DNA of 17,125 bases from IMG/VR virus record IMGVR_UViG_2671180283_000013; one strand, 5' to 3'. The position numbers were made by a program, and so were the translations under genes. The notes under the pieces are model-generated. The model was given only the letters and a program-made list of their open reading frames with translations. It was not told where the DNA came from and did not search any database. Shown here piece after piece: positions 1 to 16,857 of this stretch (positions within the stretch are counted from its first letter, which is position 1; every line of letters begins with the position of its first letter). Source of the stretch: a virus (Duplodnaviria; Heunggongvirae; Uroviricota; Caudoviricetes).

Positions 1-2071
1 CAATGACTCCGCCAGCAGTTTCCAGATCGATAGTCTTACTAAATTCCGGTCCCATATCTCCGGTTTGCGGATCGAAAAATATTGCACCTATTGAGGTGAT
101 CGGGGCATCAGGATTTTTTCCCATGGTTTCAAGGTCGATCATTAGATGGTCACACGTCCTGCTGGTGGATGTGATTTCGTGATGACCGTTCACCTTAATT
201 GGGTGATCTGCCGTCTCGCCAGTTTCATTATCGCTATTGTGATGCTGATTGCCGCCAGTGTTCTCCTTGTGTGGATGTTCAGCGCCTTCCATTTCCTCCG
301 GATCATCTTCCTGAACTTCAACCTGATACTCTTCATCGAATGTTTCTTGGTATGTTGCGTCGCCCATCACCGCGCCACAATCAGGGCAGTTGCCGCCGCC
401 GGTCTGACCGCAGGCGGTGCAGACTTTTTCCACTTCCTGTTGCGCTACTGGTTCAGGCTGTTTCGTTTCTGGCTCGTTTTGTAACGCATTTGGACTGTTT
501 TGTTCCGCTTTTTGGTAGTTCCGTTCCGATTCATGCTGGTTCTGGTTCACAGAATCGCGGGTCTGGATCCCCTTAACCCATTTCGGATCATTCGGGTCAC
601 TAATCCCTTCAACAAATTCACCACGTGATGCAGCAAGCAACTTATCAGCGTCAGGCTGGCTGATATTGGCTGCCTGCATAATTTTGTTTACTTCGTCAGC
701 GGTAACTTTTATCGGCTCTGGTTGTTCTGAATCTTCAGCGGTATCTACATTTTGCGGTAAGCCCGTGTATGTGCCATTTTTTCGGGCAAAATATTCTTCT
801 TTTGTGATTTCAGTGGCGCCAGCAGCCAGTGCCTTATCCAGACCAGAAAGTTTGTTTGCGCGACCGTATTTTTCTCCGTCCTTATCTGCGAAGAGGAAAT
901 AGAACGGCCCCTCACGCTCTACAGATGGTTCAGCTTCCGGCGCGGTTTCATTTTTTGGGATATCAGATACCTCAGTTTCCACTGCATCAGTTTGTGTTTC
1001 TGATGACTGGAGAACATCAACAGTGCCCAGGTCTGTTTCTTCATTCTCAAACACGCCCTTTGTCGTCAGGTATTCGCAGATATATTTGTTCAGTGCTACG
1101 GGATCTTTGTGAATGTCGATCGGACGCTCACGGACAAGGCCAAAAATAGTTTGGCGGTCGTAGCGAAGGGCATCAGGCTGTTTGCGCATTGATGCCGAGA
1201 TACGCTTCCAGTCTTCGCGGTCGTTGTCGATAACTTCATTTTTTGCCCAGCGATGGATGCTGCCGTCAATGTTTCCGGCATCCACATCACCAGGCCAGAG
1301 AGCGTAGGCCAGTTCGTCATCCAGTGTTTTCCATGTCTGCTTGTATTCGCGATGAATGGCAGCAATGACCGGGCTGATTTTTCCTGTTGAATTTTCACTG
1401 TGCTGTTGATTGGTTCTGGCGCGGGCGAGATCAACAACAGACGTGTATTTTCCGGTTTCCTTGCGTTCACCTTCGCGACGTTTTTTCCAGATGCGCATCT
1501 CTGCCTGAATTTCGGGCCATTTAGCACCAGGAATACATTTATGCTTAACCCACCCAATGGCGTGCAACTTAAGCTCCGGATACATGGCGTTAACTTCTGG
1601 CATTTTCATCAACGCTTCAACGATATGTCCGTCGAATGTTGCCATGTCTTCCTGCAACAATTCCTGTGCGCTAATAACCATATCAACGGTGATGTTTTCA
1701 CATGTGTCGAACTTAACCATGACAGCGTTCTGTACTTCAGGGGCCAGCTTGTCAAAAGTGACGTTCATCGGATCGGATTCAGTCTCAACCGGGACAAAAG
1801 AAGCAGACTCCTCATCCCAGCGGTTTTCCTGCATATATTCAGCATCCCATGAATCGAGGGCAGGGCGGGGTATGCCAGGTTTATCCTCGCAGACAATAAA
1901 TTTATAAGCGCAGTCCTGAGCAGCCGGATAATGTTCCAGGAATTGCCAGTGAAATTTTGCTCGAGCACGGCGTTCGTCGCCAGCTTCAATGGCTGTGGCT
2001 ACAGCCACAGCGCCTTCTTCCCTTGTTGCCAGTTCGTCAGGAATAGCGGCGCAAATAAAGACTTTACTCAT
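1..2071 (-). CDS. Large prophage exonuclease-like protein; N-terminus at 2071, C-terminal end runs off the left edge (about 690 codons visible)
   Basis: Minus-strand frame is open from ATG at 2071-2069 to the window edge; I checked every codon and found no in-frame stop. GAGGT lies about 9 nt upstream and an in-frame stop lies just upstream of the ATG. Translation starts MSKVFICAAIPDELATREEG. It contains a C-x2-C-x7-C-x2-C motif (CTACGQTGGGNCPDCG), an acidic low-complexity linker, and a DnaQ-like Exo I motif (HLMIDLETMG) near position 120-150. Position matches the exonuclease gene of the early-left operon of Rac/Qin-type prophages (from memory). Confidence 0.8.
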   Translation of the reverse strand, partial: MSKVFICAAIPDELATREEGAVAVATAIEAGDERRARAKFHWQFLEHYPAAQDCAYKFIVCEDKPGIPRPALDSWDAEYMQENRWDEESASFVPVETESDPMNVTFDKLAPEVQNAVMVKFDTCENITVDMVISAQELLQEDMATFDGHIVEALMKMPEVNAMYPELKLHAIGWVKHKCIPGAKWPEIQAEMRIWKKRREGERKETGKYTSVVDLARARTNQQHSENSTGKISPVIAAIHREYKQTWKTLDDELAYALWPGDVDAGNIDGSIHRWAKNEVIDNDREDWKRISASMRKQPDALRYDRQTIFGLVRERPIDIHKDPVALNKYICEYLTTKGVFENEETDLGTVDVLQSSETQTDAVETEVSDIPKNETAPEAEPSVEREGPFYFLFADKDGEKYGRANKLSGLDKALAAGATEITKEEYFARKNGTYTGLPQNVDTAEDSEQPEPIKVTADEVNKIMQAANISQPDADKLLAASRGEFVEGISDPNDPKWVKGIQTRDSVNQNQHESERNYQKAEQNSPNALQNEPETKQPEPVAQQEVEKVCTACGQTGGGNCPDCGAVMGDATYQETFDEEYQVEVQEDDPEEMEGAEHPHKENTGGNQHHNSDNETGETADHPIKVNGHHEITSTSRTCDHLMIDLETMGKNPDAPITSIGAIFFDPQTGDMGPEFSKTIDLETAGGVI

Positions 2072-2164
2072 TTTGTTTTAACCTCATGACAGATTTAAGG
2101 ATGAACAAATCCCTGCCATTGCTGGCATATAAGAATGAAACCGGATATTTATTACGGAACTGTT

Positions 2165-2356
2165 TTAAAGACCTGCCGGGATTTCGATATTATCCTGGTT
2201 AATAACTTTATCGACCGGGTAACAGTTACCGGGAATTTTCTGTTCGGTTGCTGCAGTCATACACTCCTGCATTGTCCTGTGAACACTGACTGCAATATCA
2301 ACTGGCACTCCGGAAACAAGAAAAACTGTCAGAACAAGCGCAAATGCTGAATTCAT
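2165..2356 (-). CDS. ydfD: Small membrane/lysis peptide, YdfD-like, 63 aa
   Basis: ATG at 2356-2354 with AAAGGA 8 nt upstream. Start overlaps the upstream gene's stop as ATGA (translational coupling). N-terminal hydrophobic segment MNSAFALVLTVFLVSGVPV. Size and position immediately downstream of dicB match Qin YdfD (from memory). Confidence 0.6.
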   Translation of the reverse strand: MNSAFALVLTVFLVSGVPVDIAVSVHRTMQECMTAATEQKIPGNCYPVDKVINQDNIEIPAGL

Positions 2357-2541
2357 TGTGCACATCCTTTTGGCATCAGACGTAAACGAGCCAGCATTGA
2401 AACAATGCATATTTTATTTAATAGCTCCCGTTCTTGTTTTCTCTTGTTAATGGCATCTTCAGTAAATACAGAGTTACTGATAGTGACACCAATTTCAAAA
2501 CAACCTTCAGACGTATTAACGTTTGGTAATAACGTTTTCAT
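2353..2541 (-). CDS. dicB: Cell division inhibitor DicB, 62 aa
   Basis: ATG at 2541-2539 with a strong SD (GAGGA, 7 nt spacer). Translation MKTLLPNVNTSEGCFEIGVTISNSVFTEDAINKRKQERELLNKICIVSMLARLRLMPKGCAQ matches my recollection of E. coli DicB almost exactly. Sits directly downstream of the dicF sequence. Confidence 0.75.
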   Translation of the reverse strand: MKTLLPNVNTSEGCFEIGVTISNSVFTEDAINKRKQERELLNKICIVSMLARLRLMPKGCAQ

Positions 2542-2710
2542 TATCGCGTCCTCAACAATGAATTTTGTGATGCAGTGCCTGGTGCCTCCAGGTGACGTTA
2601 ACCAGTTAACAATTAACGTCGGATACAGAGAATCCACCCATAACACTGTTTTTGGTTTTAACTGTTCCGCGTGCGCTTAGCCGCATTCACCGCATCACAA
2701 AATTCACTTT

Positions 2711-2768
2711 AAAAACGGCGGCAGAGCAGTCACGGAGTAAAACTGATACCGCCAAACGTCACCAGAAA
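2711..2768 (-). ncRNA. dicF: DicF small RNA (ftsZ translation inhibitor), includes 3' terminator hairpin and U-tail
   Basis: Reverse complement of 2711-2768 reads TTTCTGGTGACGTTTGGCGGTATCAGTTTTACTCCGTGACTGCTCTGCCGCCGTTTTT, which matches the DicF sequence as I remember it. It ends in a GC-rich stem plus T-run and lies between the upstream minus-strand ORFs and dicB, as in the Qin dicB operon. Ends are approximate. Confidence 0.75.
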
Positions 2769-3027
2769 ATTGATAACAGAGGGCGTTGCAGCGGGGTTGT
2801 CACTTAAGCGTATGGTCAACCTGACAACTCGGTGTCCTCAACGGGGAAGGAATAACCCCGCCATACTTACCGCCGCGCCATTTTGCGGGTTGCCACAACC
2901 GGAAGCGCACGGTCGAATTAAATTTAACGACACCGTACAGTGAGACGAACTTCGCCGTGCGCTTTCGTGTTGTGTGCCTGCTTTTAACCACGTCAGGCGA
3001 GGTGGTATCCTTAAAATCACCACAGTT

Positions 3028-3603
3028 TTAAGGATTCATTAAGCAATGTCGCAACCACCAATAAATCCGCTTAAGAACATGAAAATTGATTACTGGTATA
3101 AAGCGCTTACAGTTGTTGGCGCTGCGTTGTTTGTCTTTAATGGAACGTCTTTTTTTGACAGATATCCCGTTGTTCCATTGGGTTTTTTGTCCTCCGGCAT
3201 CTTTTTTATTGGTTTGGGGGAGTGGATTAATCACCCTCTCAAAGTGAGATTTATTGGCCCTGGAGTTTGGACTCGTGGATATAATCGTTCTTCGTGCGCA
3301 CTCGGTATCATCTTCGACATACTTGGTTGTTTCCTGATTGTTACAGGAGTCGTCAAGTTCTTCTGATGTAAAACCGCAAATGGGGCACGTAACGGGAATT
3401 TTGAAAAGCGTTTCTCCGGGTTCCAGAACAAAATTTTCTGCGGTCTGATTTTGCTTCTCATATTTGTGCTCCGCGTCATTGTGAGAGCACATTCTTATTC
3501 TGAGTGCCTGTTTAAACTCACTGAAGCTGAGAGCTTCTTCGCCTTCGGCAAGGCCTTCGAAGTATTCTTCGTAAGCCTTTTCCATGATTGTGTCGAAATC
3601 CAT
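3028..3603 (-). CDS. Acidic small protein, YdfB/YdfC-like by position; only the first 40-85 codons look like real protein, the rest of the open frame is probably antisense read-through
   Basis: ATG at 3603-3601 lies 1 nt after the ydfA-like stop (TGAtATG coupling). N-terminus MDFDTIMEKAYEEYFEGLAEGEEALSFSEFKQALRIRMCSHN is protein-like. No in-frame stop occurs until 3028, so the frame overlaps the plus-strand membrane gene at 3046-3366. The true 3' end is unresolved. Confidence 0.35.
   Translation of the reverse strand: MDFDTIMEKAYEEYFEGLAEGEEALSFSEFKQALRIRMCSHNDAEHKYEKQNQTAENFVLEPGETLFKIPVTCPICGFTSEELDDSCNNQETTKYVEDDTECARRTIISTSPNSRANKSHFERVINPLPQTNKKDAGGQKTQWNNGISVKKRRSIKDKQRSANNCKRFIPVINFHVLKRIYWWLRHCLMNP
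3046..3366 (+). CDS. Small integral membrane protein, 106 aa, embedded in opposite orientation in the early-left operon (same position as sieB in lambda/Rac; family unverified)
   Basis: ATG at 3046 with AAGGA about 11 nt upstream. Three clear hydrophobic helices (YWYKALTVVGAALFVF, VVPLGFLSSGIFFIGLG, CALGIIFDILGCFLIVTGVV). The overlapping minus-strand frame is K/R/N-rich, as expected for the antisense of a membrane-protein gene. Confidence 0.55.
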   Translation: MSQPPINPLKNMKIDYWYKALTVVGAALFVFNGTSFFDRYPVVPLGFLSSGIFFIGLGEWINHPLKVRFIGPGVWTRGYNRSSCALGIIFDILGCFLIVTGVVKFF

Positions 3604-3604
3604 A

Positions 3605-3760
3605 TCACTCACCTGAGTTTCTTTCCAGCCAGCGACGGGCACCATTTTCGGTTTTAAACGTTTTGCTTTTGGTATACGTCATCGCGGTGAACGTGCCGTC
3701 CTGGTTGGGGAACACGCCACATACCAGAGATTCGCTGTTGCCAAGATCGATAGTATCCAT
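3605..3760 (-). CDS. ydfA: YdfA/YdaF-like small protein (DUF1391-type), 51 aa
   Basis: ATG at 3760-3758. Translation MDTIDLGNSESLVCGVFPNQDGTFTAMTYTKSKTFKTENGARRWLERNSGE resembles Qin YdfA / Rac YdaF from memory. First gene downstream of dicA on the same strand. Confidence 0.6.
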   Translation of the reverse strand: MDTIDLGNSESLVCGVFPNQDGTFTAMTYTKSKTFKTENGARRWLERNSGE

Positions 3761-3840
3761 GCTGACCTCATTTCCCCTTAACGCTGGGGTAGCGGAACTG
3801 TTTGCTGAGAACACCGTGCGGTGTGTTGATGCAAATAAGA

Positions 3841-3854
3841 TTAGCCATGGCTAA
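3841..3854. promoter_or_regulatory. Perfect 14-bp palindromic operator candidate TTAGCCATGGCTAA, left of dicA; related inverted repeat ATGTTA-N4-TAACAT at 3877-3892
   Basis: Read directly: the sequence is identical to its reverse complement. Related palindromes flank dicA on both sides, in the untranslated region upstream of the ydfA-like gene. Confidence 0.5.
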
Positions 3855-3926
3855 CATATAGGTCAAGTGATTTTGTATGTTATGGCTAACATGATTGATG
3901 TGGTAAAAGATAACTCATTGATGATG

Positions 3927-4334
3927 TTATCTTTTATTTGTCCGCTGACGGGCTTTTAGTAATTCTTCAAAGAGTTTATTGAAGTTTTTTACTCGAGCTC
4001 GCATTTCGGCGAGCTGGGTATCCTGTTCTGATTCTGGCAGTGCATTAAACAGCTCAAGGAGCTCTAGTTCTTTGGGGGATAAGGCAACTGGCTTCTCAAC
4101 AGGTGGTGTTGGTTGCTTGTCTTCATCGCCAAATAGAATCCATGTTGGTGAGCATTGCAATACTTTGCTGAGGGCAAAAAGGTTCTTCCCTGTAGGTTCA
4201 CTATCATCCCGTTCCCATTGTGATACAGACACATGGGAGATTTTCAGGGCTTTAGCAAGAGACCTTTGGGTGTGTTTGAGGTTTTTCCGACGATACCTAA
4301 TGCGTTCGCCGATAGTTAAATTTTTTGTTTCCAT
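3927..4334 (-). CDS. dicA: DicA repressor (HTH, Cro/CI family), 135 aa
   Basis: ATG at 4334-4332. Translation METKNLTIGERIRYRRKNLKHTQRSLAKALKISHVSVSQWERDDSEPTGKNLFALSKVLQCSPTWILFGDED... contains a canonical helix-turn-helix and matches E. coli DicA from memory. Divergent from dicC. Confidence 0.85.
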   Translation of the reverse strand: METKNLTIGERIRYRRKNLKHTQRSLAKALKISHVSVSQWERDDSEPTGKNLFALSKVLQCSPTWILFGDEDKQPTPPVEKPVALSPKELELLELFNALPESEQDTQLAEMRARVKNFNKLFEELLKARQRTNKR

Positions 4335-4648: not shown

Positions 4649-5153
4649 ACAGGCTCGTGAGGCTCTGGATGCCTGGATATGTCGACCAGGAATGACACAG
4701 GAGCAGGCGACGATATTAATCACTGAAGCATTCTGGGCTTTGAAAGAGCGCCCGAACATCGATGTTCAGCGTGTCACAGATGAAGGTGGCGCGGTTGATC
4801 AGCGAGCGCTTGGCGTTAATCGAGTGAAGATATTCGAACGCTGGAAGGCTATCGACACCAGGGATAAGCGTGAAAAGTTCAGGGCGCTAGTGCCTGCGAT
4901 TATGGAGGCTATCCGGATTAGTGATTTCAGGTTGTATCGTGAGATCAGTGATGGAAAAAGTATTACGTACATGATCGCCGGGTTAAATAAAGAATATGGC
5001 GATGTGGTGGAATCCGGACTGCTTTTTGCAGATCCTGCCGTTGTAGATCGTGAAACTGACGAACTTATAGAAAAAGCAATTGCTTTCAAGCTTGCGTATC
5101 GACAGCAATACCAACAAAAAGCTGGATGGAATTATGAGTCTTCTTTTTGCTGA
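4632..5153 (+). CDS. YdaT-like / CII-like early regulatory protein, 173 aa (family from memory, unverified)
   Basis: ATG at 4632 overlaps the dicC stop by 17 bp. Protein-like composition. Position after the cro-like gene is typical for YdaT/CII-like genes. Confidence 0.7.
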   Translation: MKITPEQAREALDAWICRPGMTQEQATILITEAFWALKERPNIDVQRVTDEGGAVDQRALGVNRVKIFERWKAIDTRDKREKFRALVPAIMEAIRISDFRLYREISDGKSITYMIAGLNKEYGDVVESGLLFADPAVVDRETDELIEKAIAFKLAYRQQYQQKAGWNYESSFC

Positions 5154-6099
5154 ACGCCCACTGGTTATAAACACGCAGCTGGCAATGAAAATTGGCTTAA
5201 ACGAAGCCATTGTTTTGCAACAACTGCACTACTGGTTGAGAGATACCAACTCCGGCATGGAATGTGATGGTGTTCGCTGGATTTATAACACAACGGAACA
5301 ATGGCTGGAACAGTTCCCATTCTGGTCAGAGTCAACGTTAAAGCGCGCGTTTGCAAGTCTGAAAACGCTGGGGCTTTTGCGTTGTGAAAAGCTCAATAAA
5401 TCAAAGCGCGATATGACCAATTTCTACACGATCAACTACGGGAGCGAGCTTTTAGATGGTGGCAAATTGAGCGAATCCATCGGTTTAAAATGCGCCGCTC
5501 CATCAGGTCAAAATGACACGATGGAAGAGGTCAAAATGAAACGCTCCATTGGTTCAAAACGACTCAATGTCATCGGGTCAAAATGGCCTGATGATCTTAC
5601 AGAGAATACAACAGAGATTACTACAGAGAATAAAAAGACTTCTCGTCCGGAAGCTTCGCAACCGGACCCGCAGACGGTTGAACAGGATTTTTTAACCCGA
5701 CACCCTGACGCGGTTGTGTTCAGTGCGAAAAAACGCCAGTGGGGCAGCCAGGAAGATTTGGCGTGTGCGCAGTGGATCTGGGGGCGAATCGTGAGTCTTT
5801 ACGAGCAGGCCGCCAGCGATGATGGCGAGATTTCGCGACCGAAAGAACCCAACTGGACCGCATGGGCCAACGACGTGCGCACAATGCGGATGCTGGATGG
5901 CAGAACTCACAGACAAATTTGTGAAATGTTTGGTCGGGTGCAGCGGGATCCATTCTGGGTAAAAAATATCATGAGTCCGTCAAAGCTTCGCGAAAAATGG
6001 GATGAACTGGTTATCCGCCTGGGGCGTTCGTCTGTACAGCGTTGTGTGAATCATATTTCTGAGCCGGATACCGAAATTCCGCCGGGCTTCAGGGGGTAA
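5134..6099 (+). CDS. Phage replication initiation protein (replisome-organizer-like N-terminus, DnaT-like C-terminus), about 321 aa
   Basis: ATG at 5134 (MSLLFAERPLVINTQLAMKIGLNEAIVLQQLHYWL...) overlaps the upstream stop by 20 bp; the track ORF's earlier start at 5080 would overlap 73 bp. Domain call rests on remembered family features, not a search. Confidence 0.7.
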   Translation: MSLLFAERPLVINTQLAMKIGLNEAIVLQQLHYWLRDTNSGMECDGVRWIYNTTEQWLEQFPFWSESTLKRAFASLKTLGLLRCEKLNKSKRDMTNFYTINYGSELLDGGKLSESIGLKCAAPSGQNDTMEEVKMKRSIGSKRLNVIGSKWPDDLTENTTEITTENKKTSRPEASQPDPQTVEQDFLTRHPDAVVFSAKKRQWGSQEDLACAQWIWGRIVSLYEQAASDDGEISRPKEPNWTAWANDVRTMRMLDGRTHRQICEMFGRVQRDPFWVKNIMSPSKLREKWDELVIRLGRSSVQRCVNHISEPDTEIPPGFRG

Positions 6100-6139: not shown

Positions 6140-6562
6140 GTGGCAAAAGTTTTTACACAAGAAGAGCGGGAAAAAATTAAAGGGCAGGTTGTTGAACTCG
6201 TACGCCGGAGTGGGCGTGAGACGTTACGGCAACTGGAAGTCAAGACAGGTGCGACAAGATATCTGATGAGCGTTCTCGCAAGAGAGCTGGTTGCCAGCGG
6301 CGATGTATACAACTCTGGTTACGGGTTATTCCCGTCTGAACAGGCGCGTAAGGACTGGCAAAATGCCCGTAAAAAGCTCTCAAGGGCAAAGCTGAAGGAA
6401 CCATCTGCGGTTGATCCGGACCTTATCTGGTCATTACCTGACGGAGAAATACGTCGTTACGACAGGCGTCATAATATGATTTGTACTGAGTGTCGTAAAA
6501 GCGAAGTTATGCAGCGCATATTGTCGTTTTATCAGGGGGATGTCCGGTATTTATTGAAGTGA
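6140..6562 (+). CDS. Hypothetical protein, 140 aa, unknown function
   Basis: GTG at 6140 preceded by a strong SD, AGGAGG with 5 nt spacer. Protein-like, with a C-terminal CTEC motif. Confidence 0.7.
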   Translation: MAKVFTQEEREKIKGQVVELVRRSGRETLRQLEVKTGATRYLMSVLARELVASGDVYNSGYGLFPSEQARKDWQNARKKLSRAKLKEPSAVDPDLIWSLPDGEIRRYDRRHNMICTECRKSEVMQRILSFYQGDVRYLLK

Positions 6563-6896
6563 CGAGATTAAAGTGCATTAGTTCAGATGCAAATTGACAT
6601 TTTGTGGCACAGGGTAGAGCTAGCGTGGTTGTCCGCTTTGTGCCAAGAGCAGACGCTGGTAATTCGTGCCTAATATACTTCACTTAACTTATATCCCAGC
6701 TTTGATACAGATCATACAAATTAAATGCCCCAGTAATTGGCAGGCTGAGTAACTTAAAACTCCTTAGAATATAGGATGATTTGTATCGGCACTCATTCCA
6801 CCATGCATTCCGATTAACCCCGCATAGCCAGTTGAACTTTGCTACTCTGTGAGAGGTAGTACCTTCTATCCAGTGCGGATTTAATTAATGGAATAA

Positions 6897-8900
6897 ATGA
6901 TTATGAGTGAAAATGATACAACCCCAAAGAAGTCTACAAGCCAGATTAACAAAGCGGTATTCTTTACATCTGCTTTGCTAATTTTCCTTCTTGTCGCCTT
7001 TGCCGCCGTATTCCCGGATGTCGCCGACAAAAATTTTAAACTACTTCAGCAACAAATCTTCACGAATGCCAGCTGGTTCTACATACTTGCTGTGGCCCTG
7101 ATTTTACTGAGCGTCACGTTCCTTGGACTCTCACGTTACGGTGATATAAAGCTGGGCCCAGACCATGCGCAGCCTGATTTCAGCTACCACTCCTGGTTCG
7201 CGATGCTTTTTTCGGCAGGGATGGGGATCGGCCTGATGTTCTTTGGCGTTGCCGAACCTGTGATGCATTATCTTTCGCCACCTGTCGGCACTCCAGAGAC
7301 CGTTGCGGCAGCGAAGGAAGCCATGCGCCTGACGTTCTTCCACTGGGGTCTGCACGCATGGGCAATTTATGCCATCGTGGCGCTGATTCTGGCCTTTTTC
7401 AGTTACCGTCACGGTCTGCCTTTAACGCTGCGTTCTGCGCTCTATCCCATTATCGGCGATCGCATTTACGGGCCTATAGGCCACGCGGTTGATATCTTCG
7501 CCGTGATAGGCACTGTCTTTGGCGTTGCAACATCGCTGGGTTACGGTGTATTGCAGGTGAATGCCGGTTTGAACCATCTTTTCGGCGTGCCCATCAATGA
7601 AACGGTACAGGTCATTTTGATCGTGGTCATCACGGGGTTAGCGACGATTTCGGTGGTGTCCGGCCTGGACAAGGGAATACGCATCCTGTCTGAGCTTAAT
7701 CTGGGCCTGGCGGTGTTGCTCCTGGCGCTGGTCTTGTGCCTGGGTCCCACTGTGCTTCTGCTGAAGTCATTTGTGGAAAATACGGGTGGTTATCTGTCGG
7801 AACTGGTGAGTAAAACGTTCAACCTTTACGCGTATGAACCCAAGTCGAGCAACTGGCTGGGGGGCTGGACATTATTATACTGGGGATGGTGGCTTTCATG
7901 GTCGCCGTTTGTAGGTATGTTCATTGCACGCGTTTCCCGCGGCAGGACAATTCGTGAGTTCGTGACTGGCGTGTTGTTTGTTCCCGCCGGCTTTACGCTC
8001 ATGTGGATGACGGTGTTTGGAAACAGCGCCATCTATCTCATCATGAACCAGGGCGCCACTGACCTCGCCAATACCGTTCAGCAGGATGTTGCGCTTGCCC
8101 TGTTTAATTTCCTGGAGCATTTCCCGTTCTCTTCCGTGCTGTCATTCATTGCAATGGCGATGGTCATCGTCTTCTTTGTAACGTCTGCTGATTCGGGGGC
8201 AATGGTTGTGGATACTCTGGCATCAGGTGGGGTGGCAAACACGCCCGTCTGGCAGCGAATTTTCTGGGCATCGCTCATGGGCGTTGTTGCTATTGCCCTG
8301 CTGATCGCAGGGGGGCTGAGTGCGTTGCAAACCGTAACGATAGCGAGTGCATTGCCCTTCTCAGTTATCTTATTAATATCCATATACGGACTGTTAAAAG
8401 CCCTGCGTCGGGATTTGACCAAGCGTGAAAGCCTTAGCATGGCGACTATTGCTCCTACGGCTGCACGTAACCCAATTCCCTGGCAGAGAAGGTTACGCAA
8501 TATCGCGTATTTGCCGAAGCGCTCTCTTGTGAAACGTTTTATGGACGACATTATCCAACCCGCCATGACGCTGGTTCAGGAGGAACTTAACAAGCAGGGA
8601 ACGATAAGCCACATCAGTGACGCCGCCGAGGATCGTATTCGCCTTGAAGTCGATTTGGGCAACGAGCTGAATTATATATATGAAGTGAGGCTTCGCGGGT
8701 ATAACTCACCGACCTTCGCGCTCGCTGCGCTGGATAATGATGAGCAGCAGAGTGAACAACATCGATATTATCGCGCTGAAGTCTATCTCAAAGAGGGCGG
8801 CCAAAATTATGATGTAATGGGCTGGAATCAGGAACAGCTGATTAATGACATACTGGACCAGTACGAAAAACACCTGCACTTCCTGCATCTGGTTCGTTAA
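6897..8900 (+). CDS. BCCT-family transporter, BetT-like (choline/betaine-type) with long cytoplasmic C-terminal extension, 667 aa
   Basis: Contains the BCCT tryptophan signature WTLLYWGWWLSWSPFVGMFIARVSRGRTIREF and about 12 hydrophobic helices. Collinear with E. coli BetT as I recall it, including a C-terminal tail of about 170 aa; clearly a paralogue, not betT itself. Start could instead be 6903. Confidence 0.9.
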   Translation: MIMSENDTTPKKSTSQINKAVFFTSALLIFLLVAFAAVFPDVADKNFKLLQQQIFTNASWFYILAVALILLSVTFLGLSRYGDIKLGPDHAQPDFSYHSWFAMLFSAGMGIGLMFFGVAEPVMHYLSPPVGTPETVAAAKEAMRLTFFHWGLHAWAIYAIVALILAFFSYRHGLPLTLRSALYPIIGDRIYGPIGHAVDIFAVIGTVFGVATSLGYGVLQVNAGLNHLFGVPINETVQVILIVVITGLATISVVSGLDKGIRILSELNLGLAVLLLALVLCLGPTVLLLKSFVENTGGYLSELVSKTFNLYAYEPKSSNWLGGWTLLYWGWWLSWSPFVGMFIARVSRGRTIREFVTGVLFVPAGFTLMWMTVFGNSAIYLIMNQGATDLANTVQQDVALALFNFLEHFPFSSVLSFIAMAMVIVFFVTSADSGAMVVDTLASGGVANTPVWQRIFWASLMGVVAIALLIAGGLSALQTVTIASALPFSVILLISIYGLLKALRRDLTKRESLSMATIAPTAARNPIPWQRRLRNIAYLPKRSLVKRFMDDIIQPAMTLVQEELNKQGTISHISDAAEDRIRLEVDLGNELNYIYEVRLRGYNSPTFALAALDNDEQQSEQHRYYRAEVYLKEGGQNYDVMGWNQEQLINDILDQYEKHLHFLHLVR

Positions 8901-8907
8901 CAGCAAC

Positions 8908-8936
8908 ATGCCGCCACAGAGGCGGCATTTATTTAT
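8908..8936 (+). terminator. Rho-independent terminator-like hairpin after the transporter gene
   Basis: ATGCCGCC-ACAGA-GGCGGCAT: 8-bp perfect stem, 5-nt loop, followed by TTATTTAT, starting 8 nt after the TAA stop. Confidence 0.6.
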
Positions 8937-8963
8937 CCCGGCTGCAATATGAGGGAATGCAGA

Positions 8964-10241
8964 ATGATTTCACGCTGGAAATGGATGCTGAAGCAGACAT
9001 TTAAAAAACTATGGTTCAGGGCAACGTTATTCGCAATTGTCGCAATAATAACGGCCCTTTTATCAATTCTTTTTAAATCAATGATACCTGAGTCGGTTTC
9101 CGTGAAGGTTGGTGCGGAAGCAGTCGATAACATTCTGAACATACTGGCATCGAGTATGCTGGCAGTGACCACATTTTCGCTGAGCATCATGGTCACAGCC
9201 TACGGTTCAGCCACTACTAATGTGACTCCCAGAGCTACTCGTTTAGTTGTTGAAGACGTCACCACACAAAATGTACTGGCCACCTTCATCGGTTCTTTTC
9301 TCTTCAGTCTGGTAGGGATTATTGCCCTCAATATGGGAGCTTATGGAGAAAGGGGGAGAGTCATTTTATTCATTGTAACACTGGTTGTCATTGCCTTAAT
9401 CCTCATCACATTGCTTCGCTGGATACAGCATTTGACCTCTCTGGGGAGGGTTGGTGAGACAACGGCAAAAGTAGAACAGGCGGCCATCGAAACATTTATT
9501 GCGAGAGCAAGAAATCCCTGTCTCGGCGGATATCCATGGCTTGAGAACAATGAACAGCCGAAAGGAACGGTTGCAGTTTATCCGAAAAAGATTGGCTATG
9601 TTGAATATGTTGATATGGTGAAACTCAGCAAGCTGCTGACCAATGATCCCCGTCATGTATACCTCGTGGCGCAGCCGGGCAGTTTCATACATCCGTCCAC
9701 GCCAGTTTTGTACCTGAGTCAGGGCCAGGAGTCATCAATCAGCACCGATTTACTTGAGACGATTATTGTCTCGGATGTACGTTCATTTGCTCAGGACCCC
9801 CGATTTTGTCTTAGCGTCATGGCCGAAATAGCCTGCCGAGCCCTTTCCCCCGCAGTGAACGATCCTGGAACCGCCATTGATGTCATTGGCAGAGGTGTAC
9901 GTATACTTTCCGCTTACGCGCAGAATAAATCTGATGAAATAGAAGTGAAATATCCTTCTGTACATGTTGCACCACTTCAGAATAACGATCTACTTGAAGA
10001 CTTTTTCTCACCTGTTGCGCGCGATGGTGCCAGTATGAGGGAAATTCAGATAAGGGTACTTAAAGGACTGTCGATGCTGAGTAAGGGTTGGCCTGGAATT
10101 TTTGCTGAAGCCGCACAAACCCTAGCATTTGAAACATTAGAGCATGCTACTCGTGCTGACCATATAGATTCTGACAGATATCTAATAAAATCAATTTATT
10201 ATAATTTATTTAGTGGCGAAGATTCTAATAAAAAACCATAG
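8964..10241 (+). CDS. Membrane protein with about 5 N-terminal TM helices and a roughly 250-aa soluble C-terminal domain, possibly DUF2254-type; 425 aa
   Basis: ATG at 8964 is preceded by GAGGGA with 7 nt spacer; the alternative ATG at 8949 has no SD. Hydrophobic N-terminal third. C-terminal domain carries a motif (RALSPAVNDPGTAIDVIGRG) that I associate from memory with DUF2254 proteins. Confidence 0.8.
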   Translation: MISRWKWMLKQTFKKLWFRATLFAIVAIITALLSILFKSMIPESVSVKVGAEAVDNILNILASSMLAVTTFSLSIMVTAYGSATTNVTPRATRLVVEDVTTQNVLATFIGSFLFSLVGIIALNMGAYGERGRVILFIVTLVVIALILITLLRWIQHLTSLGRVGETTAKVEQAAIETFIARARNPCLGGYPWLENNEQPKGTVAVYPKKIGYVEYVDMVKLSKLLTNDPRHVYLVAQPGSFIHPSTPVLYLSQGQESSISTDLLETIIVSDVRSFAQDPRFCLSVMAEIACRALSPAVNDPGTAIDVIGRGVRILSAYAQNKSDEIEVKYPSVHVAPLQNNDLLEDFFSPVARDGASMREIQIRVLKGLSMLSKGWPGIFAEAAQTLAFETLEHATRADHIDSDRYLIKSIYYNLFSGEDSNKKP

Positions 10242-10644
10242 TTGCGGAGCAAGCGATACGGTTGTTGGCAAGTCAAGGGCAAAGCATTCGCGTGAGAGTG
10301 GGCGTCTGCTTTGTGCCATAAGCGGAAGTATTTAACAACTATCAGTGTTGTTCAACAGATAAAGGGGCACTTGATTTTTTCTGTTCTCAGGAAATGATAA
10401 AAGCGCGTCGGTTCAAGCCTGCTTAACGGGAGTTTGTTAATCCTGTTGCCGTGACGTTTTGACACCATTATGATGGGGAGACACTTAATGTATGAAGGTT
10501 CCGCCACTTATACCTGTCCAACAACTGCCTCGGGTGTTTCTTTGTATGAATAAGTGGTAATGAGTAGTGAATCGCTAACAGTCACCCGAACAATCGGTGC
10601 CTGCAATTAATTCTATATTCTAAACGAGGGGGAGATTATTACAC

Positions 10645-11625
10645 ATGAAATTTAAGGACAAGAACCTTAAGGCTCTCGCGGAATGTATCATAGGAGATAA
10701 TAAGGCATTTCTGTATCGTTCAAGCAGTCACATCACTGAATTTTTCCAGGACTGCGGCATGGATGTTACTCATGACGGATCCACTCGGTGGAAATGGACG
10801 GCCCAGAGGCTTGAAGAACTTCTTTATGAGCCACAGTCAAAGCCACATACTTTGCCGGAAAGGTTTGTTCATGTGCTCAGAACTTTAATGTTAAAAGAAG
10901 ATGCAATGGATGACGATCCAGGAAGATTAAAGGCGCTTGAAGAACTGAACAAGCCTTTGATGCGGGAAGGCTATGAGGCATTCTATGGTGACGATCGCCT
11001 TTTGTATATACGCCATACCGATACCAAAACGGTTTCAGTCAGTAATAACCCTCATCGGCCCTTAACGCCTCACGAAGTAGAATGCAGAAGGTTACTGACC
11101 GCGTTTCTTGATACCTGCTCAGAAGATGAGTTAATAGAAGATATTCTCCTTCCTTTATTCCGGCAACTTGGTTTTCACCGGATAACAGCAGTGGGACATA
11201 AAGATAAAGCGCTGGAATACGGGAAAGACATCTGGATGAAGTTCACACTGCCAACTCAGCATGTTCTTTATTTCGGCATTCAGGCAAAAAAAGGTAAGTT
11301 GGATGCGTCCGGTGCCAGCAAATCTACGAATTCAAACGTGGCAGAAATCTTCAACCAGGTACTGATGATGCTTGGCCATGAAATATTTGACCCAGAAACA
11401 AATAGAAAGGTGCTGGTAGATCATGCCTTTATCGTTGCTGGCGGAGAAATTACTAAACAGGCGAGGAACTGGCTGGGCGGGAAACTTGATGCCAGCAAAA
11501 GAAGCCAGATAATATTTATGGACCGGGAAGACATTCTTAATTTATATACTGTAAGTAATGTACCTCTGCCAACAGGTGCTCTCATCTCTGATGATGCCGT
11601 TAAGAACGATGATATTCCTTTCTAA
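10645..11625 (+). CDS. Orphan protein with a C-terminal Mrr-like restriction-endonuclease motif (PD-(D/E)xK-type) and an unassigned N-terminal domain of about 150 aa; 326 aa
   Basis: ATG at 10645 with GAGGGGGAG upstream. Motif pattern ...GKDIWMKF-x13-YFGIQAKKGK... (D-x17-QxK) followed by HAFIVAGGEIT, resembling the Mrr catalytic-domain signature as I recall it. The gene looks more AT-rich than the backbone by eye. Confidence 0.75.
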   Translation: MKFKDKNLKALAECIIGDNKAFLYRSSSHITEFFQDCGMDVTHDGSTRWKWTAQRLEELLYEPQSKPHTLPERFVHVLRTLMLKEDAMDDDPGRLKALEELNKPLMREGYEAFYGDDRLLYIRHTDTKTVSVSNNPHRPLTPHEVECRRLLTAFLDTCSEDELIEDILLPLFRQLGFHRITAVGHKDKALEYGKDIWMKFTLPTQHVLYFGIQAKKGKLDASGASKSTNSNVAEIFNQVLMMLGHEIFDPETNRKVLVDHAFIVAGGEITKQARNWLGGKLDASKRSQIIFMDREDILNLYTVSNVPLPTGALISDDAVKNDDIPF

Positions 11626-12052
11626 TCAGAAGTACGTCTTTTTCTGAAAGAATACGTGATAGGTAGCCACACCACACCTTTAGTGACCCCTTAATCTGGT
11701 AATATAACAGCCCGTATGAATGTCCGCGGCATCGCGGGCTGAAATTTATTAAAAATACTTATTCATCAAGCTGGAGTAGTTTGCCGAGTAACTGTAAACG
11801 CCCAACTTAACCGGACCATTCACTTTTAGATTGCTACCAGCAAACCAACTTCCGTTTCTCGCTCAAAGCGGACTAGAAGGTTAGCTTGCGTCGGACTTGG
11901 CGTATTTAAAGAAGTGCTGGTGGTAACTGGTTGTTGTGTTCCATTTCTACAAAACAAAATCACAGAAACTATACCCAATAGTTATATTGAATCAATGATG
12001 AGACAGCCTCATATTTATCAGAACTGGTGTACGTCCAATACAGGAGGTTGTC

Positions 12053-12142: not shown

Positions 12143-12353
12143 TTTTATATTGGCGAGGTGACGGGAGTTAAGTAGAATTGCTGCGGGTGCTTGAGGCTAT
12201 CTGCCTCAGGCATGAACACCAAAGGCAGATAGAGAAAAGCCCCAGTTAACATTACGCGTCCTGCAAGACGTTTAACATTAATCTGAGGCTCAATCTATGA
12301 ACGGCAAATCTAGGTTAGCCTCTTACGTGCCGAAAGGCAAGGAGAAGCAGGCT

Positions 12354-12509
12354 ATGAAGCAGCAAAAGGCGATGTTAATCGCCCTGATCGTCATCTGTTT
12401 AACCGTCATAGTGACGACACTGGTAACGAGGAAAGACCTCTGCGAGGTACGAATCCGAACCGGCCAGACGGAGGTCGCTGTCTTCACAGCTTACGAACCT
12501 GAGGAGTAA
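12354..12509 (+). CDS. hokD: Hok/Gef-family type I toxin, HokD(RelF)-like, 51 aa
   Basis: Translation MKQQKAMLIALIVICLTVIVTTLVTRKDLCEVRIRTGQTEVAVFTAYEPEE is near-identical to HokD from memory. SD AGGAG lies 9 nt upstream. The track ORF from 12297 is an in-frame upstream extension. Confidence 0.85.
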   Translation: MKQQKAMLIALIVICLTVIVTTLVTRKDLCEVRIRTGQTEVAVFTAYEPEE

Positions 12510-15640: not shown

Positions 15641-15716
15641 GGCCCTTTAGCTCAGTGGTGAGAGCGAGCGACTCATAATCGCCAGGCCGCTGGTTCAAAT
15701 CCAGCAAGGGCCACCA
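15641..15716 (+). tRNA. tRNA with CAU anticodon, most like tRNA-Ile2 (lysidine type) rather than elongator Met
   Basis: Cloverleaf folded by hand: acceptor GGCCCTT/AAGGGCC, D-arm GCTCAGTGGTGAGAGC, anticodon loop CTCATAA, T-arm with TTCAAAT, 3' ACCA encoded. Anticodon arm (GCGACTCATAATCGC) resembles E. coli ileX as I recall it. Confidence 0.85.
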
Positions 15717-15723
15717 TCACATA

Positions 15724-15800
15724 CCGCCATTAGCTCATCGGGATAGAACGCCAGCCTTCGAAGCTGGTTTCGCGGGGTTCGAGTCTCCGATGGCGGTCCA
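15724..15800 (+). tRNA. tRNA-Arg (anticodon UCG)
   Basis: Anticodon stem CCAGC/GCTGG with loop CTTCGAA, T-loop TTCGAGT, acceptor CCGCCAT/ATGGCGG, CCA encoded. One mismatch in the D-stem. Confidence 0.75.
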
Positions 15801-15813
15801 TTATCGGTATTCT

Positions 15814-15890
15814 GCGTTTTTAGCTCAGCCGGACAGAGCAATTGCCTTCTAAGCAATCGGTCACTGGTTCGAACCCAGTACAACGCACCA
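15814..15890 (+). tRNA. tRNA-Arg (anticodon UCU)
   Basis: D-arm GCTCAGCCGGACAGAGC, anticodon stem ATTGC/GCAAT with loop CTTCTAA, T-loop TTCGAAC, CCA encoded. One acceptor-stem mismatch. Confidence 0.8.
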
Positions 15891-16656: not shown

Positions 16657-16857
16657 TTTTTTTGTTTGCTGTTTATTAAAAACACTTCTGCATGGTGAAT
16701 CCCCCTGTGCGGTGGGGCAATCAGCAAGAAGGAATATGGGGTAATCGCGGATTCAGGTGCTGATACTGAATTCACCGGGAGGCACCCGGCACCATGCTTT
16801 GCCACAAAAGTGTTATTTCTGTTTTTCTCAAACTATCATCGTTATCCCTTTATTTTC

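Follow-up and report, generated by a model that had tools for sequence, protein, structure and literature searches.

A betU–DUF2254 osmotolerance gene pair packaged as a cassette between 24-bp sites in a Rac-like Escherichia coli prophage

Here we report that a transporter gene (6897..8900, + strand) and the membrane-protein gene that follows it (8964–10241, +) form a discrete 3.7-kb cassette, bounded by two 24-bp sites, within a Rac-like E. coli prophage. The window, to which all coordinates refer, is the whole 17,125-nucleotide stretch of IMG/VR record IMGVR_UViG_2671180283_000013. The pair at 6563–10241 comprises a BCCT-family transporter and a DUF2254 protein; it is betU with its habitual DUF2254 neighbour, the two-CDS cargo of Tn6062, and as such is already known and not novel. 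The new part is the packaging of the cassette between the 24-bp sites. We consider it likely, with good confidence, that the segment is an osmoadaptation cassette carried as lysogenic-conversion cargo, a judgement that covers jointly this role, the function proposed below for DUF2254 and mobility by crossover in the site cores. The features of the window on which the argument rests are as follows.

6140..6562, + strand: DUF977 gene, the last conserved backbone gene left of the hotspot (Pfam PF06163, E 1.3e-28)
6631..6654, + strand: left boundary site, type A, a hybrid with a backbone-type left arm and a cassette-type right arm (GTCCGCT-TTGTGCCAAG-AGCAGAC)
6655..6896, + strand: non-coding cassette leader of 242 bp, the presumed betU promoter region, which moves with betU in plasmids and P2-like prophages
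6897..8900, + strand: betU, osmoprotectant (glycine betaine / proline betaine) importer of the BCCT family, 667 aa (665 aa from the RefSeq start at 6903)
8908..8937, + strand: intrinsic terminator/attenuator between betU and the DUF2254 gene (ATGCCGCC-ACAGA-GGCGGCAT plus TTATTTAT)
8964..10241, + strand: DUF2254 gene (PF10011), 425 aa, predicted to have four TM helices, with ~265 aa in a cytoplasmic domain
10304..10327, + strand: right boundary site, type A, a hybrid with a cassette-type left arm and a backbone-type right arm (GTCTGCT-TTGTGCCATA-AGCGGAA)
10645..11625, + strand: second hotspot cassette, encoding a 326-aa soluble protein with no family match
11850..11873, no strand assigned: site that closes the hotspot as a whole on the right, an inverted type B (TTCCGTT-TCTCGCTCAA-AGCGGAC), with conserved backbone beyond it
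12185..12359, + strand: sok antisense RNA of hok/sok, the first conserved backbone feature right of the hotspot (Rfam RF01794, 111.7 bits, E 3.8e-25)

The gene pair is a widespread, previously cloned osmotolerance module found on mobile elements of E. coli, Salmonella and Klebsiella. Tn6062 on IncHI1 PST6 plasmids carries betU and a second CDS, and S. Typhi regained growth in 0.8 M NaCl when given a cloned fragment of 3405 bp that spans the two CDSs (Holt et al. 2011, PMC3139670); the clone held both genes, so the experiment cannot split the contributions of betU and DUF2254. This clone corresponds to approximately 6829–10231 of the window. The reverse cloning primer matches exactly at 10212–10231, and the core of the forward primer, TTGAACTTTGCTAC, lies ~55 bp upstream of the betU ATG and is exact at the corresponding place in 14 related loci, although the full 22-mer has no match within 3 mismatches. 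A copy of the pair on an S. Typhi plasmid is 99.8% identical in DNA and 100% identical in both proteins, and together with the primers it establishes identity with the betU fragment of Holt et al. The pair is present in ~1,370 of 5,426 complete E. coli genomes and on ~1,460 plasmids. An earlier note on this DNA named as grounds for refutation that the two genes are never adjacent elsewhere and each occurs only in chromosomal osmoregulation loci; they are in fact neighbours in thousands of genomes and plasmids, and in several distant lineages. An ExPEC-lineage copy, ~94% identical, occupies an island rich in IS elements, with fec on one side and nanXY on the other, and we did not find betU near leuX in CFT073. 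The spacing described in that note was also accurate, with 63 bp between the genes (8901–8963; about 60 bp claimed) and non-coding flanks of 334 bp (6563–6896) and 403 bp (10242–10644), against the claimed ~330 and ~400 bp. Tn6062 holds the same gene pair as an IS1 composite transposon, whereas here the pair lies between two 24-bp sites in a prophage hotspot. A composite transposon is ruled out in the window, where no transposase ORF or IS lies beside the pair, which is flanked by phage backbone and by a second cassette.

The upstream gene had been read as a full-length BCCT transporter with a BetT-type C-terminal tail, and both parts of that reading hold. Pfam PF02028, the model of the 12-TM BCCT core, is covered in whole (E 7e-199; 661.7 bits against a cut-off of 27; residues 21–506 on model positions 1–485 of 485), and the protein is 42% identical to K-12 BetT end to end, tail included. 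BCCT proteins carry a tryptophan-rich signature in TM8, given in PROSITE as [GSDN]-W-T-[LIVM]-x-[FY]-W-x-W-W, and the BetU translation contains GWTLLYWGWW, which fits this pattern. Its score against the NCBIfam BetT subfamily NF007399 is 752 bits (cut-off 695; residues 10–667), and that against the glycine betaine equivalog NF047988 is 593.5 bits, below the cut-off of 650. NCBIfam accordingly classes the protein with choline BetT, which counts against the betaine assignment. A structure-relative search placed 8ybq as the closest solved relative (E 4e-193). K-12 BetT, the choline:H+ symporter of the bet operon, shares the BCCT core and the long cytoplasmic C-terminal tail. By contrast, BetU is unlinked to betIBA, and in the glycine stretch of TM3 it reads AGMGIG, with Gly for the Asp of the GIGID found in choline-specific BetT; a structure of BetP G153D with bound choline exists. 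BetU reportedly carries betaines rather than the choline of BetT, and secondary citations describe it as a glycine betaine importer that serves osmoregulation in pyelonephritis E. coli.

In our reading BetU, a secondary transporter of the BCCT family whose cytoplasmic C-terminal tail is of BetT type, takes up glycine betaine and proline betaine at high external osmolality, and such import leaves a lysogen able to grow in high salt or urine. The betaine import step has been shown in the literature, both for the betU gene family and for this two-gene fragment. The suggestion of cargo for osmoprotectant uptake is accordingly upheld, by the identity of BetU and by the osmotolerance that the cloned pair gave S. 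Typhi (PMC3139670). We found no strong sigma-70 consensus upstream of betU in the leader.

The downstream protein, tentatively assigned to DUF2254 in the earlier note, matches Pfam PF10011 over its full length (E 1.6e-92, model positions 3–366 of 368; 310.6 bits against a gathering cut-off of 28.8). The RefSeq start at 8964 gives the 425 residues originally counted, and the first ATG, at 8949 (8949..10241), gives 430. Instead of the five or so membrane helices proposed there are four hydrophobic segments (residues 15–43, 57–79, 102–127 and 127–160), and TM2 and TM3 are highly conserved and rich in polar residues. We found no solved structural relative, and a literature search on DUF2254 (PF10011, COG4325, IPR018723) returned a predicted-knots paper only and no functional work. 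DUF2254 is a large conserved membrane-protein family whose neighbours point to ion or osmolyte homeostasis: homologues in other Proteobacteria adjoin BCCT, NhaA, ClC or MgtE transporters (NhaA in 9 species, ClC in 7), and most are single chromosomal genes, outside mobile contexts and beside ion transporters. The gene closest to that for DUF2254 encodes a BCCT protein in Pluralibacter, Pantoea eucrina (with the order reversed), an Aurantimonadaceae MAG, two Agrobacterium species and, at a distance of ~1.2 kb, Pseudomonas sp. TNT3. In ~68 of 80 species the DUF2254 homologue has no BCCT gene within 6 kb. Since BCCT adjacency occurs in only ~10% of sampled species, the linkage could stem from a general setting of membrane or ion functions and not from a specific partnership.

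DUF2254 is an inner-membrane protein of four TM segments whose cytoplasmic domain is conserved. Judging from its gene neighbourhoods, it would act beside ion-coupled transporters, for example as a sensor, a regulator or a leak pathway, and it may represent a new kind of membrane partner for such transporters (BCCT, NhaA, ClC). Its role is probably in ion or osmolyte homeostasis, and it is probably dispensable for BetU. This role is easily testable because the two-gene clone already has a phenotype.

The organization of the pair argues against tight coupling. Between the genes, at 8908–8937, lies an intrinsic terminator with a GC-rich hairpin (8908–8928) and a T tract, which folds at −14.9 kcal/mol (z −4.6) and is retained through compensatory changes in five diverged copies. 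The pair had been credited with a candidate terminator of its own; one good intrinsic terminator exists, but it stands between the genes and not after the pair. DUF2254 would be transcribed at a lower level, by read-through of this conserved terminator/attenuator. The earlier note had also proposed a two-component membrane system. If the pair were obligate, BetU would depend for its normal activity on DUF2254 as a regulatory or accessory subunit, such as an osmosensor or a partner in ion recycling, and three observations agree with this: the genes have stayed together through 89–94% DNA divergence, both on plasmids of Klebsiella, Enterobacter and Salmonella and in E. coli islands; BCCT–DUF2254 adjacency arose repeatedly and independently, in both gene orders, in alpha- and gamma-proteobacteria; and the polar TM2 and TM3 are conserved. 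However, besides the conserved terminator, IS911 cuts DUF2254 in many ExPEC genomes and leaves betU intact (~1/5 of sampled E. coli records), GC3 is strongly unequal between the two genes (0.59 vs 0.42), the Pluralibacter BCCT protein is 93% identical where its DUF2254 is only 68%, and most DUF2254 species lack a nearby BCCT gene, with NhaA or ClC as other neighbours. An obligate pair is on these grounds unlikely, and we favour a DUF2254 that BetU would not need for transport. The substrate range of BetU and the sufficiency of betU alone may be as described, as far as secondary citations and the IS911-truncated alleles, which are possibly clonal, indicate.

The proposed location of the pair within a prophage, between replication genes and sok/hok, is confirmed by the flanking gene families: the upstream side has cI-like HTH and YdaT-like genes, a replication initiator resembling O and the DUF977 gene, and the downstream side sok/hok, DUF968, a Q antiterminator and tRNAs. 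E. coli 13C1065T has the identical region, annotated. The earlier note had likened this position to that of trkG in Rac, a comparison that does not stand: K-12 trkG follows the rzpR/rzoR lysis remnants, the replication module is different and the boundary sites are absent. What the two share is an osmoregulatory ion or osmolyte transporter as prophage cargo, and Ly et al. 2004 (J Bacteriol 186:296), the reference for BetU of uropathogenic E. coli, names betU and trkG together in its title.

The region had further been called a hotspot for cargo and defence genes, and candidates for PD-T7-1, PD-T7-5, CBASS, AbiH, Tmn and PDC indeed occupy it as alternative cargo in other prophages. Most other cargo here consists of anti-phage defence genes, which, with DUF2254 being an uncharacterised membrane protein, raises the idea that one or both genes form an anti-phage or superinfection-exclusion system. 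Against this, neither BetU nor DUF2254 matches any PADLOC-DB 2.0 family at E ≤ 0.01, plainly metabolic cargo (LysR/ChaC/MFS, SDR, NUDIX+HAD) is also found in the hotspot, DUF2254 homologues are mostly chromosomal, and an osmotic role has been demonstrated for BetU in the literature. We regard a phage-exclusion role, which the earlier note had raised, as very improbable, and retain osmoadaptation as the function of the cassette.

The two sites that bound the betU cassette have the general form GTCCGCT-TTGTGCCANN-AGCGGAC. Imperfect 32-nt direct repeats are spaced 3673 bp apart, with clean junctions. Similarity to phage Tritos, a phage without betU, extends as far as ~6654, and a plasmid copy of the cassette begins at ~6630. 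On the right, identity across genomes stops after GTGCCA and gives way to at least 7 different continuations downstream. In 82 viral or prophage loci the sequence before the left site is the DUF977 3' flank, a conserved flank, TAGAAGGTTAGCTTGCGTCGGACTTGG, lies beyond the type B site in 56 loci, and lambdoid loci hold at least 20 cargo size classes between A and B sites. The core comes in two variants, GTGCCA and GAGCGA. Counted over unique contexts, the arms combine as C..G (34), T..G (12) and C..A (11), and the ExPEC island copy has a 3' site with both arms cassette-type, T..A. Variation at position 8 of the site and position 4 of the arm tracks the backbone, and the NN and inner arm track the cargo. 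From sequence comparison, the arms look as if swapped by crossover in the core. A single compensating base pair underlies the hybrid-arm argument.

In P2-like phages, G/FI cargo between the tail-fibre-assembly and tail-sheath genes, in 37 size classes, is enclosed by these 24-bp A and B sites as well. This G/FI (Z/fun) locus differs in backbone and genome position, and its site position 8 is C or A where lambdoid sites have T. Five cassettes are 99.6–100% identical between lambdoid and P2-like phages, with identity that begins and ends at the sites, and betU–DUF2254 itself occurs in one P2-like prophage (L276). Nilsson, Karlsson & Haggard-Ljungquist 2004 (Mol Biol Evol 21:1), on P2-like phages, may describe related sites. 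Short conserved sites define exchangeable cassettes common to unrelated phage families and a route by which cargo spreads.

We propose that the pair moves as one 3.67-kb unit with a single 24-bp recombination site at its 3' end. Entry would proceed by crossover in the 7-bp core TGTGCCA, common to the cassette site (arms GTCTGCT/AGCAGAC) and the resident hotspot site (arms GTCCGCT/AGCGGAC), and would leave one hybrid site on each side. The hotspot, from the DUF977 gene to sok/hok, is delimited by an A site and an inverted B site, and its contents are swapped between phages, lambdoid and P2-like families included. Exchange might depend on a site-specific recombinase dedicated to it; alternatively, it might occur by short-homology recombination, with functions of the host or RecET/Red-type functions of the phage.

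The arrangement resembles integron cassettes in its promoter-poor ORFs followed by one imperfectly palindromic 3' site, and in insertion beside a fixed backbone site, the formation of arrays and hybrid sites after insertion. It differs in that attC sites are 57–141 bp as against 24 bp here, that RYYYAAC/GTTRRRY cores are lacking, and that an inverted second site type, which integrons do not have, closes the hotspot. An integron gene cassette proper is ruled out, with no GTTRRRY core in the site and no IntI or integrase in the window. A shufflon- or Pin-type invertible segment is likewise ruled out: among 56 hotspot cargoes, 109 matches were forward and 0 reverse, and no cargo occurs in both orientations.

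Temperate enterobacterial phages may possess an unrecognised cassette system that resembles integrons and has the 24-bp GTCCGCT-N10-AGCGGAC elements as its target sites. If so, it would shuttle dozens of defence and fitness cassettes, betU–DUF2254 included, between lambdoid and P2-like phages and pass them onward to plasmids and islands, and an enzyme behind the sites, if there is one, would explain how such genes circulate among prophage hotspots. That this site system and DUF2254 as a new transporter partner both hold is a combination we advance tentatively and, on balance, doubt. The competing explanation, to which we give somewhat less than an even chance, is that the elements are conserved functional hairpins belonging to the phage backbone and to cassettes (transcriptional insulators, RNA 3' stabilisers or protein-binding sites), through which ordinary short-homology exchange would take place. 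For RecET-type recombinases a few tens of bases of homology can suffice, and RecET is encoded by these prophages; any crossover within the shared 24-bp block would yield equally clean boundaries; the arms are conserved in sequence with almost no covariation; and no recombinase co-occurs with the sites, the two tyrosine recombinases beside one array (L116) being absent at every other locus. Yet the inferred junctions recur in the same 7-bp core and not across the whole 24 bp, and the same sites serve P2-like phages, which to our knowledge lack Red/RecET-type functions. The 7-bp inverted arms around an asymmetric core in two variants also resemble recombinase core sites, and no T tract follows the hairpins, whose RNA fold is modest (z about −1.3). 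No Rfam family matched at the sites, and a literature search with their core sequences returned unrelated primers only.

The 326-aa protein of the second cassette had no Pfam, NCBIfam, PHROGs or PADLOC match. Its gene occurs in exact sequence on at least 1000 contigs and, at one locus (L090), is present without betU.

The window is a portion of a Rac-like lambdoid prophage whose host is E. coli. An identical stretch (100%) occurs in E. coli 13C1065T, where RefSeq annotates recET, kilR and sieB upstream and hokD downstream. The genes around the pair are as follows.

3927-4334, minus strand: cI-like HTH repressor gene, left of the pair
left of the pair: YdaT-like gene
5080-6099: O-like replication initiator (phrog_391)
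6140-6562: DUF977 gene, left of the pair
12185-12359: sok (Rfam), part of sok/hok, right of the pair
right of the pair: DUF968/HNH, the Q antiterminator and three tRNAs

Rfam matches at 2716-2767 (minus), 2509-2718 (minus), 16661-16833 (plus) and 15641-15887 (plus) are DicF (72.5 bits), two STnc100 elements (one complete at 100.8 bits, the second weak at 33.5 bits against a gathering score of 47) and the three tRNA genes, which lie downstream of Q.

The two genes of the pair occupy the positions proposed in the earlier note, 6897-8900 (667 aa) and 8949/8964-10241 (430/425 aa), with non-coding flanks of 334 and 403 bp and a gap of 63 bp, close to the approximate lengths given there. The first encodes a complete BCCT transporter (Pfam E 7e-199), and the suggestion that the second belongs to DUF2254 is borne out by a complete protein of that family (Pfam E 1.6e-92), in which we found four hydrophobic segments instead of the "five or so" TM helices first counted; the predicted topology of the four-helix protein has both the N and C termini inside. 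A good terminator is present only in the intergenic gap, and not downstream of the pair.

The transporter is BetU. It shares 42% identity with K-12 BetT from end to end, including the cytoplasmic tail, and its NCBIfam scores exceed the cut-off for the BetT subfamily and fall short of that for the glycine-betaine equivalog. Solved full-length relatives include 8ybq (E 4e-193) and BetP (E 3e-97). The glycine stretch of TM3 reads AGMGIG in BetU and GIGID in BetT; we take the betaine transporter BetP to carry AGMGIG at this stretch (G149-G153), and a structure of BetP G153D with bound choline exists. Judged by its residues, the TM3 stretch fits specificity for betaine as opposed to choline.

The pair is an already known module, BetU with its DUF2254 neighbor. 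Tn6062, on IncHI1 PST6 plasmids of S. Typhi, carries two putative transporter genes, SPAP0105 and SPAP0106 (betU), and a 3405-bp fragment with both coding sequences, cloned in pACYC184, restored growth in 0.8 M NaCl (Holt et al. 2011; PMC3139670). The reverse primer from that study matches the window exactly at 10212-10231; the core of the forward primer lies ~55 bp upstream of the betU ATG and has exact matches in related loci, while the full 22-mer differs from the window by more than three mismatches. From these matches, the cloned fragment corresponds to approximately 6829-10231. According to a recent paper, pyelonephritis isolates possess BetU as an extra, osmoregulatory importer of glycine betaine. 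The proposal that the pair is cargo for osmoprotectant uptake holds; the cloned betU module conferred salt tolerance on S. Typhi.

Imperfect direct repeats of 32 nt, at a spacing of 3673 bp, lie on either side of the pair. Each includes a 24-bp element in which inverted arms of 7 bp enclose a centre of 10 nt. We call elements with the core GTGCCA A sites and those with GAGCGA B sites.

6631-6654: left site, GTCCGCT-TTGTGCCAAG-AGCAGAC
10304-10327: right site, GTCTGCT-TTGTGCCATA-AGCGGAA
11850-11873: third element, inverted, with a different core (TTGAGCGA type), adjoining conserved backbone

The positions of the two A sites and the inverted B site therefore give the layout DUF977 - A - [betU, DUF2254] - A - [ORF326] - B - sok/hok. 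The intervening open reading frame (10645-11625, plus strand) encodes a 326-aa soluble protein and forms a one-gene cassette from the second A site to the B site; its exact sequence occurs on at least 1000 contigs, the protein has no match in Pfam, NCBIfam, PHROGs or PADLOC, and we regard it as a possible defence or accessory gene that has yet to be described.

Comparison with other genomes places the cassette boundaries at these sites. In phage Tritos, a phage without betU, the backbone matches the window as far as the left site and diverges beyond it; the S. Typhi plasmid copy of the pair starts at the left site; and at the right site three genomes are alike up to GTGCCA and then diverge. 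Matched arms (GTCCGCT/AGCGGAC) are usual in other prophages (34 unique contexts), and the ends of the betU cassette are the two mixed arm combinations, the pattern expected if a cassette site with T..A arms had crossed with a resident site with C..G arms within their shared core. In the ExPEC island copy, the retained 3' site has two arms that are each of the T..A kind, GTATGCT...AGCAAAC. A cassette carrying its own T..A-arm site would, in such a scheme, recombine with a resident C..G-arm site inside the common core; the predicted junction of the circular cassette is GTCTGCT-TTGTGCCA-AG-AGCAGAC, and the restored resident site would read GTCCGCT-TTGTGCCA-NN-AGCGGAC. Unrelated chromosomal loci totalling 1 Mb held the 24-mer pattern three times; phage loci that had been selected for the site held it 229 times in 1.3 Mb.

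Scanning viral contigs for the site gave more than 119 loci. In the 56 with both conserved flanks, the A-to-B segment comes in at least 20 size classes (984 to 6715 bp), and type-A sites have at least 55 distinct downstream continuations. The earlier view of this segment as a hotspot for cargo and defence genes was well founded: alternative cargo includes PD-T7-1, PD-T7-5, a CBASS cyclase with a 2TM effector, AbiH and a Tmn/YobI ATPase, further PDC-S06/S15/S33/S39, an Mrr-like nuclease, RelA/SpoT and WYL, and also metabolic genes (SDR, LysR/ChaC/MFS, NUDIX+HAD). None of the hotspot cargoes compared for orientation was inverted. On some contigs, small cassettes form arrays in which a B site followed 14-27 bp later by an A site separates one cassette from the next. 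One such array (locus L116, 1429-6702; dCMP deaminase and unknown ORFs between B/A pairs) adjoins an S24-peptidase-like gene and a side-by-side pair of tyrosine recombinases (335 and 707 aa) present in no other locus among those compared. Locus L104 has seven site-like elements in a 4-kb stretch (979-3958), its cassettes encoding a CAP12/Pycsar-type TIR effector and a GNAT acetyltransferase, and locus L154 has three in direct orientation with 21-nt spacers (6721-6835, period ~45 bp), where sites are usually single or paired.

Short-query BLAST located the same site in P2-like phages, where it directly follows the tail-fibre-assembly gene and precedes the tail-sheath gene, at the variable Z/fun locus of the P2 map. 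Such loci include L212 (5001-6490), L276 (2508-7212) and others in L214-L293. The NUDIX+HAD cassette of P2_4C9 is 99.5% identical over 1491 bp to its lambdoid copy, and the identity runs from the first base of the A site to the last base of the B site. A second scan yielded 101 P2-type loci. Their 53 complete hotspots represent 37 classes of cargo size, and 55 distinct combinations of site and cargo start occur. At least five cassettes are common to P2-like and lambdoid hotspots at 99.6-100% identity, betU-DUF2254 among them: L276 is ordered P2 flank - A - betU - DUF2254 - A - 984-bp cassette - B - P2 flank, and L249 also carries betU.

Position 8 of the site is T on lambdoid backbones and C or A on P2 backbones, whereas NN, the inner arm and a few bases beyond it track the cargo. 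As position 8 follows the backbone and the inner positions follow the cargo, the junction maps to the core TGTGCCA in both phage families. These alignments are consistent with exchange by crossovers within a 6-7-bp core between inverted arms, an arrangement resembling the core sites of recombinases, but they do not prove that an enzyme is involved. Short-homology recombination through the 24-bp block would likewise yield clean boundaries. Among the loci compared, no recombinase accompanies the sites from locus to locus, and the arms show no covariation among unique contexts. The inferred junction within TGTGCCA in both families speaks against short homology, and we give that mechanism and a site-specific enzyme roughly equal weight. 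Prior art on the sites is likely. Our literature search turned up no account of the sites in the lambdoid hotspot, nor of betU as a site-bounded cassette. The exchange of site-bounded cassettes across lambdoid and P2-like prophage hotspots merits further work.

The pair had also been proposed as a two-component membrane system, including a possible phage-exclusion role. The DUF2254 protein has no match in PADLOC or NCBIfam, and we found no functional study of the family, for part of which a trefoil knot has been predicted. In our alignment TM2 and TM3 are polar and highly conserved, and the soluble domain has an invariant charged cluster (QDPRF, E-x3-R-A-L-S-P-x2-N-D-x-G-T-A-I-D). A BCCT gene lies within 6 kb of a DUF2254 homologue in ~12 of 80 species-level genomes: it is the nearest neighbor in Pluralibacter and two Agrobacterium species, in reversed order in Pantoea eucrina and an Aurantimonadaceae MAG, and at ~1.2 kb in Pseudomonas sp. 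TNT3. Since a rough estimate of chance gives only ~0.1 such neighbors in this sample, the association is real but loose. Other immediate neighbors are NhaA (nine species), ClC (seven species), MgtE and a CPA exchanger, and three Pseudomonas chromosomes (L072, L080, L081) have the order NhaA-DUF2254-ClC, a Na+/H+ antiporter and a chloride channel/antiporter on either side. The lack of a PADLOC match and these neighbors argue against phage exclusion.

Obligate partnership is disfavored by the terminator between the genes, a hairpin with a T tract retained through compensatory changes in five diverged copies (-14.9 kcal/mol, z -4.6), by intact betU beside DUF2254 genes cut by IS911, and by GC3 (0.59 in betU versus 0.42 in DUF2254). 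The Pluralibacter BCCT protein is 93% identical to BetU, its DUF2254 protein just 68% identical to that of the pair. Taken together, these data make DUF2254 a long-standing yet separable neighbor of BetU, neither an obligate subunit nor a defence protein, with a probable role in ion or osmolyte homeostasis. Its function is worth following up, and the existing two-gene clone makes testing easy. K-12 Rac, cited earlier as having trkG at the analogous place, lacks it at the equivalent position. A 524-aa E. coli protein in our homologue set (P0049) is annotated with DUF2254 and TrkH (PF02386) domains, which suggests a prophage variant with a truncated DUF2254 gene abutting or fused to trkG.

Sequence covering 80% or more of the 3.7-kb query occurs in ~1,370 of 5,426 complete E. 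coli genomes and also in 1,457 of 72,556 plasmids, chiefly Klebsiella IncFIB/IncFII plasmids at ~93% identity, with others from Enterobacter, Citrobacter, Salmonella and Shigella; it is absent from every isolated phage genome of the phage collection. Two lineages of the pair exist in E. coli, the prophage copy (99% or more) and a second at ~94% identity in an IS-rich island between fecE and nanXY. Even sampling of E. coli records shows IS911 interrupting DUF2254 after ~113 codons, with betU left intact, in about one fifth of them; an ExPEC (CSF) isolate (L208, 8170-9684) is an example.
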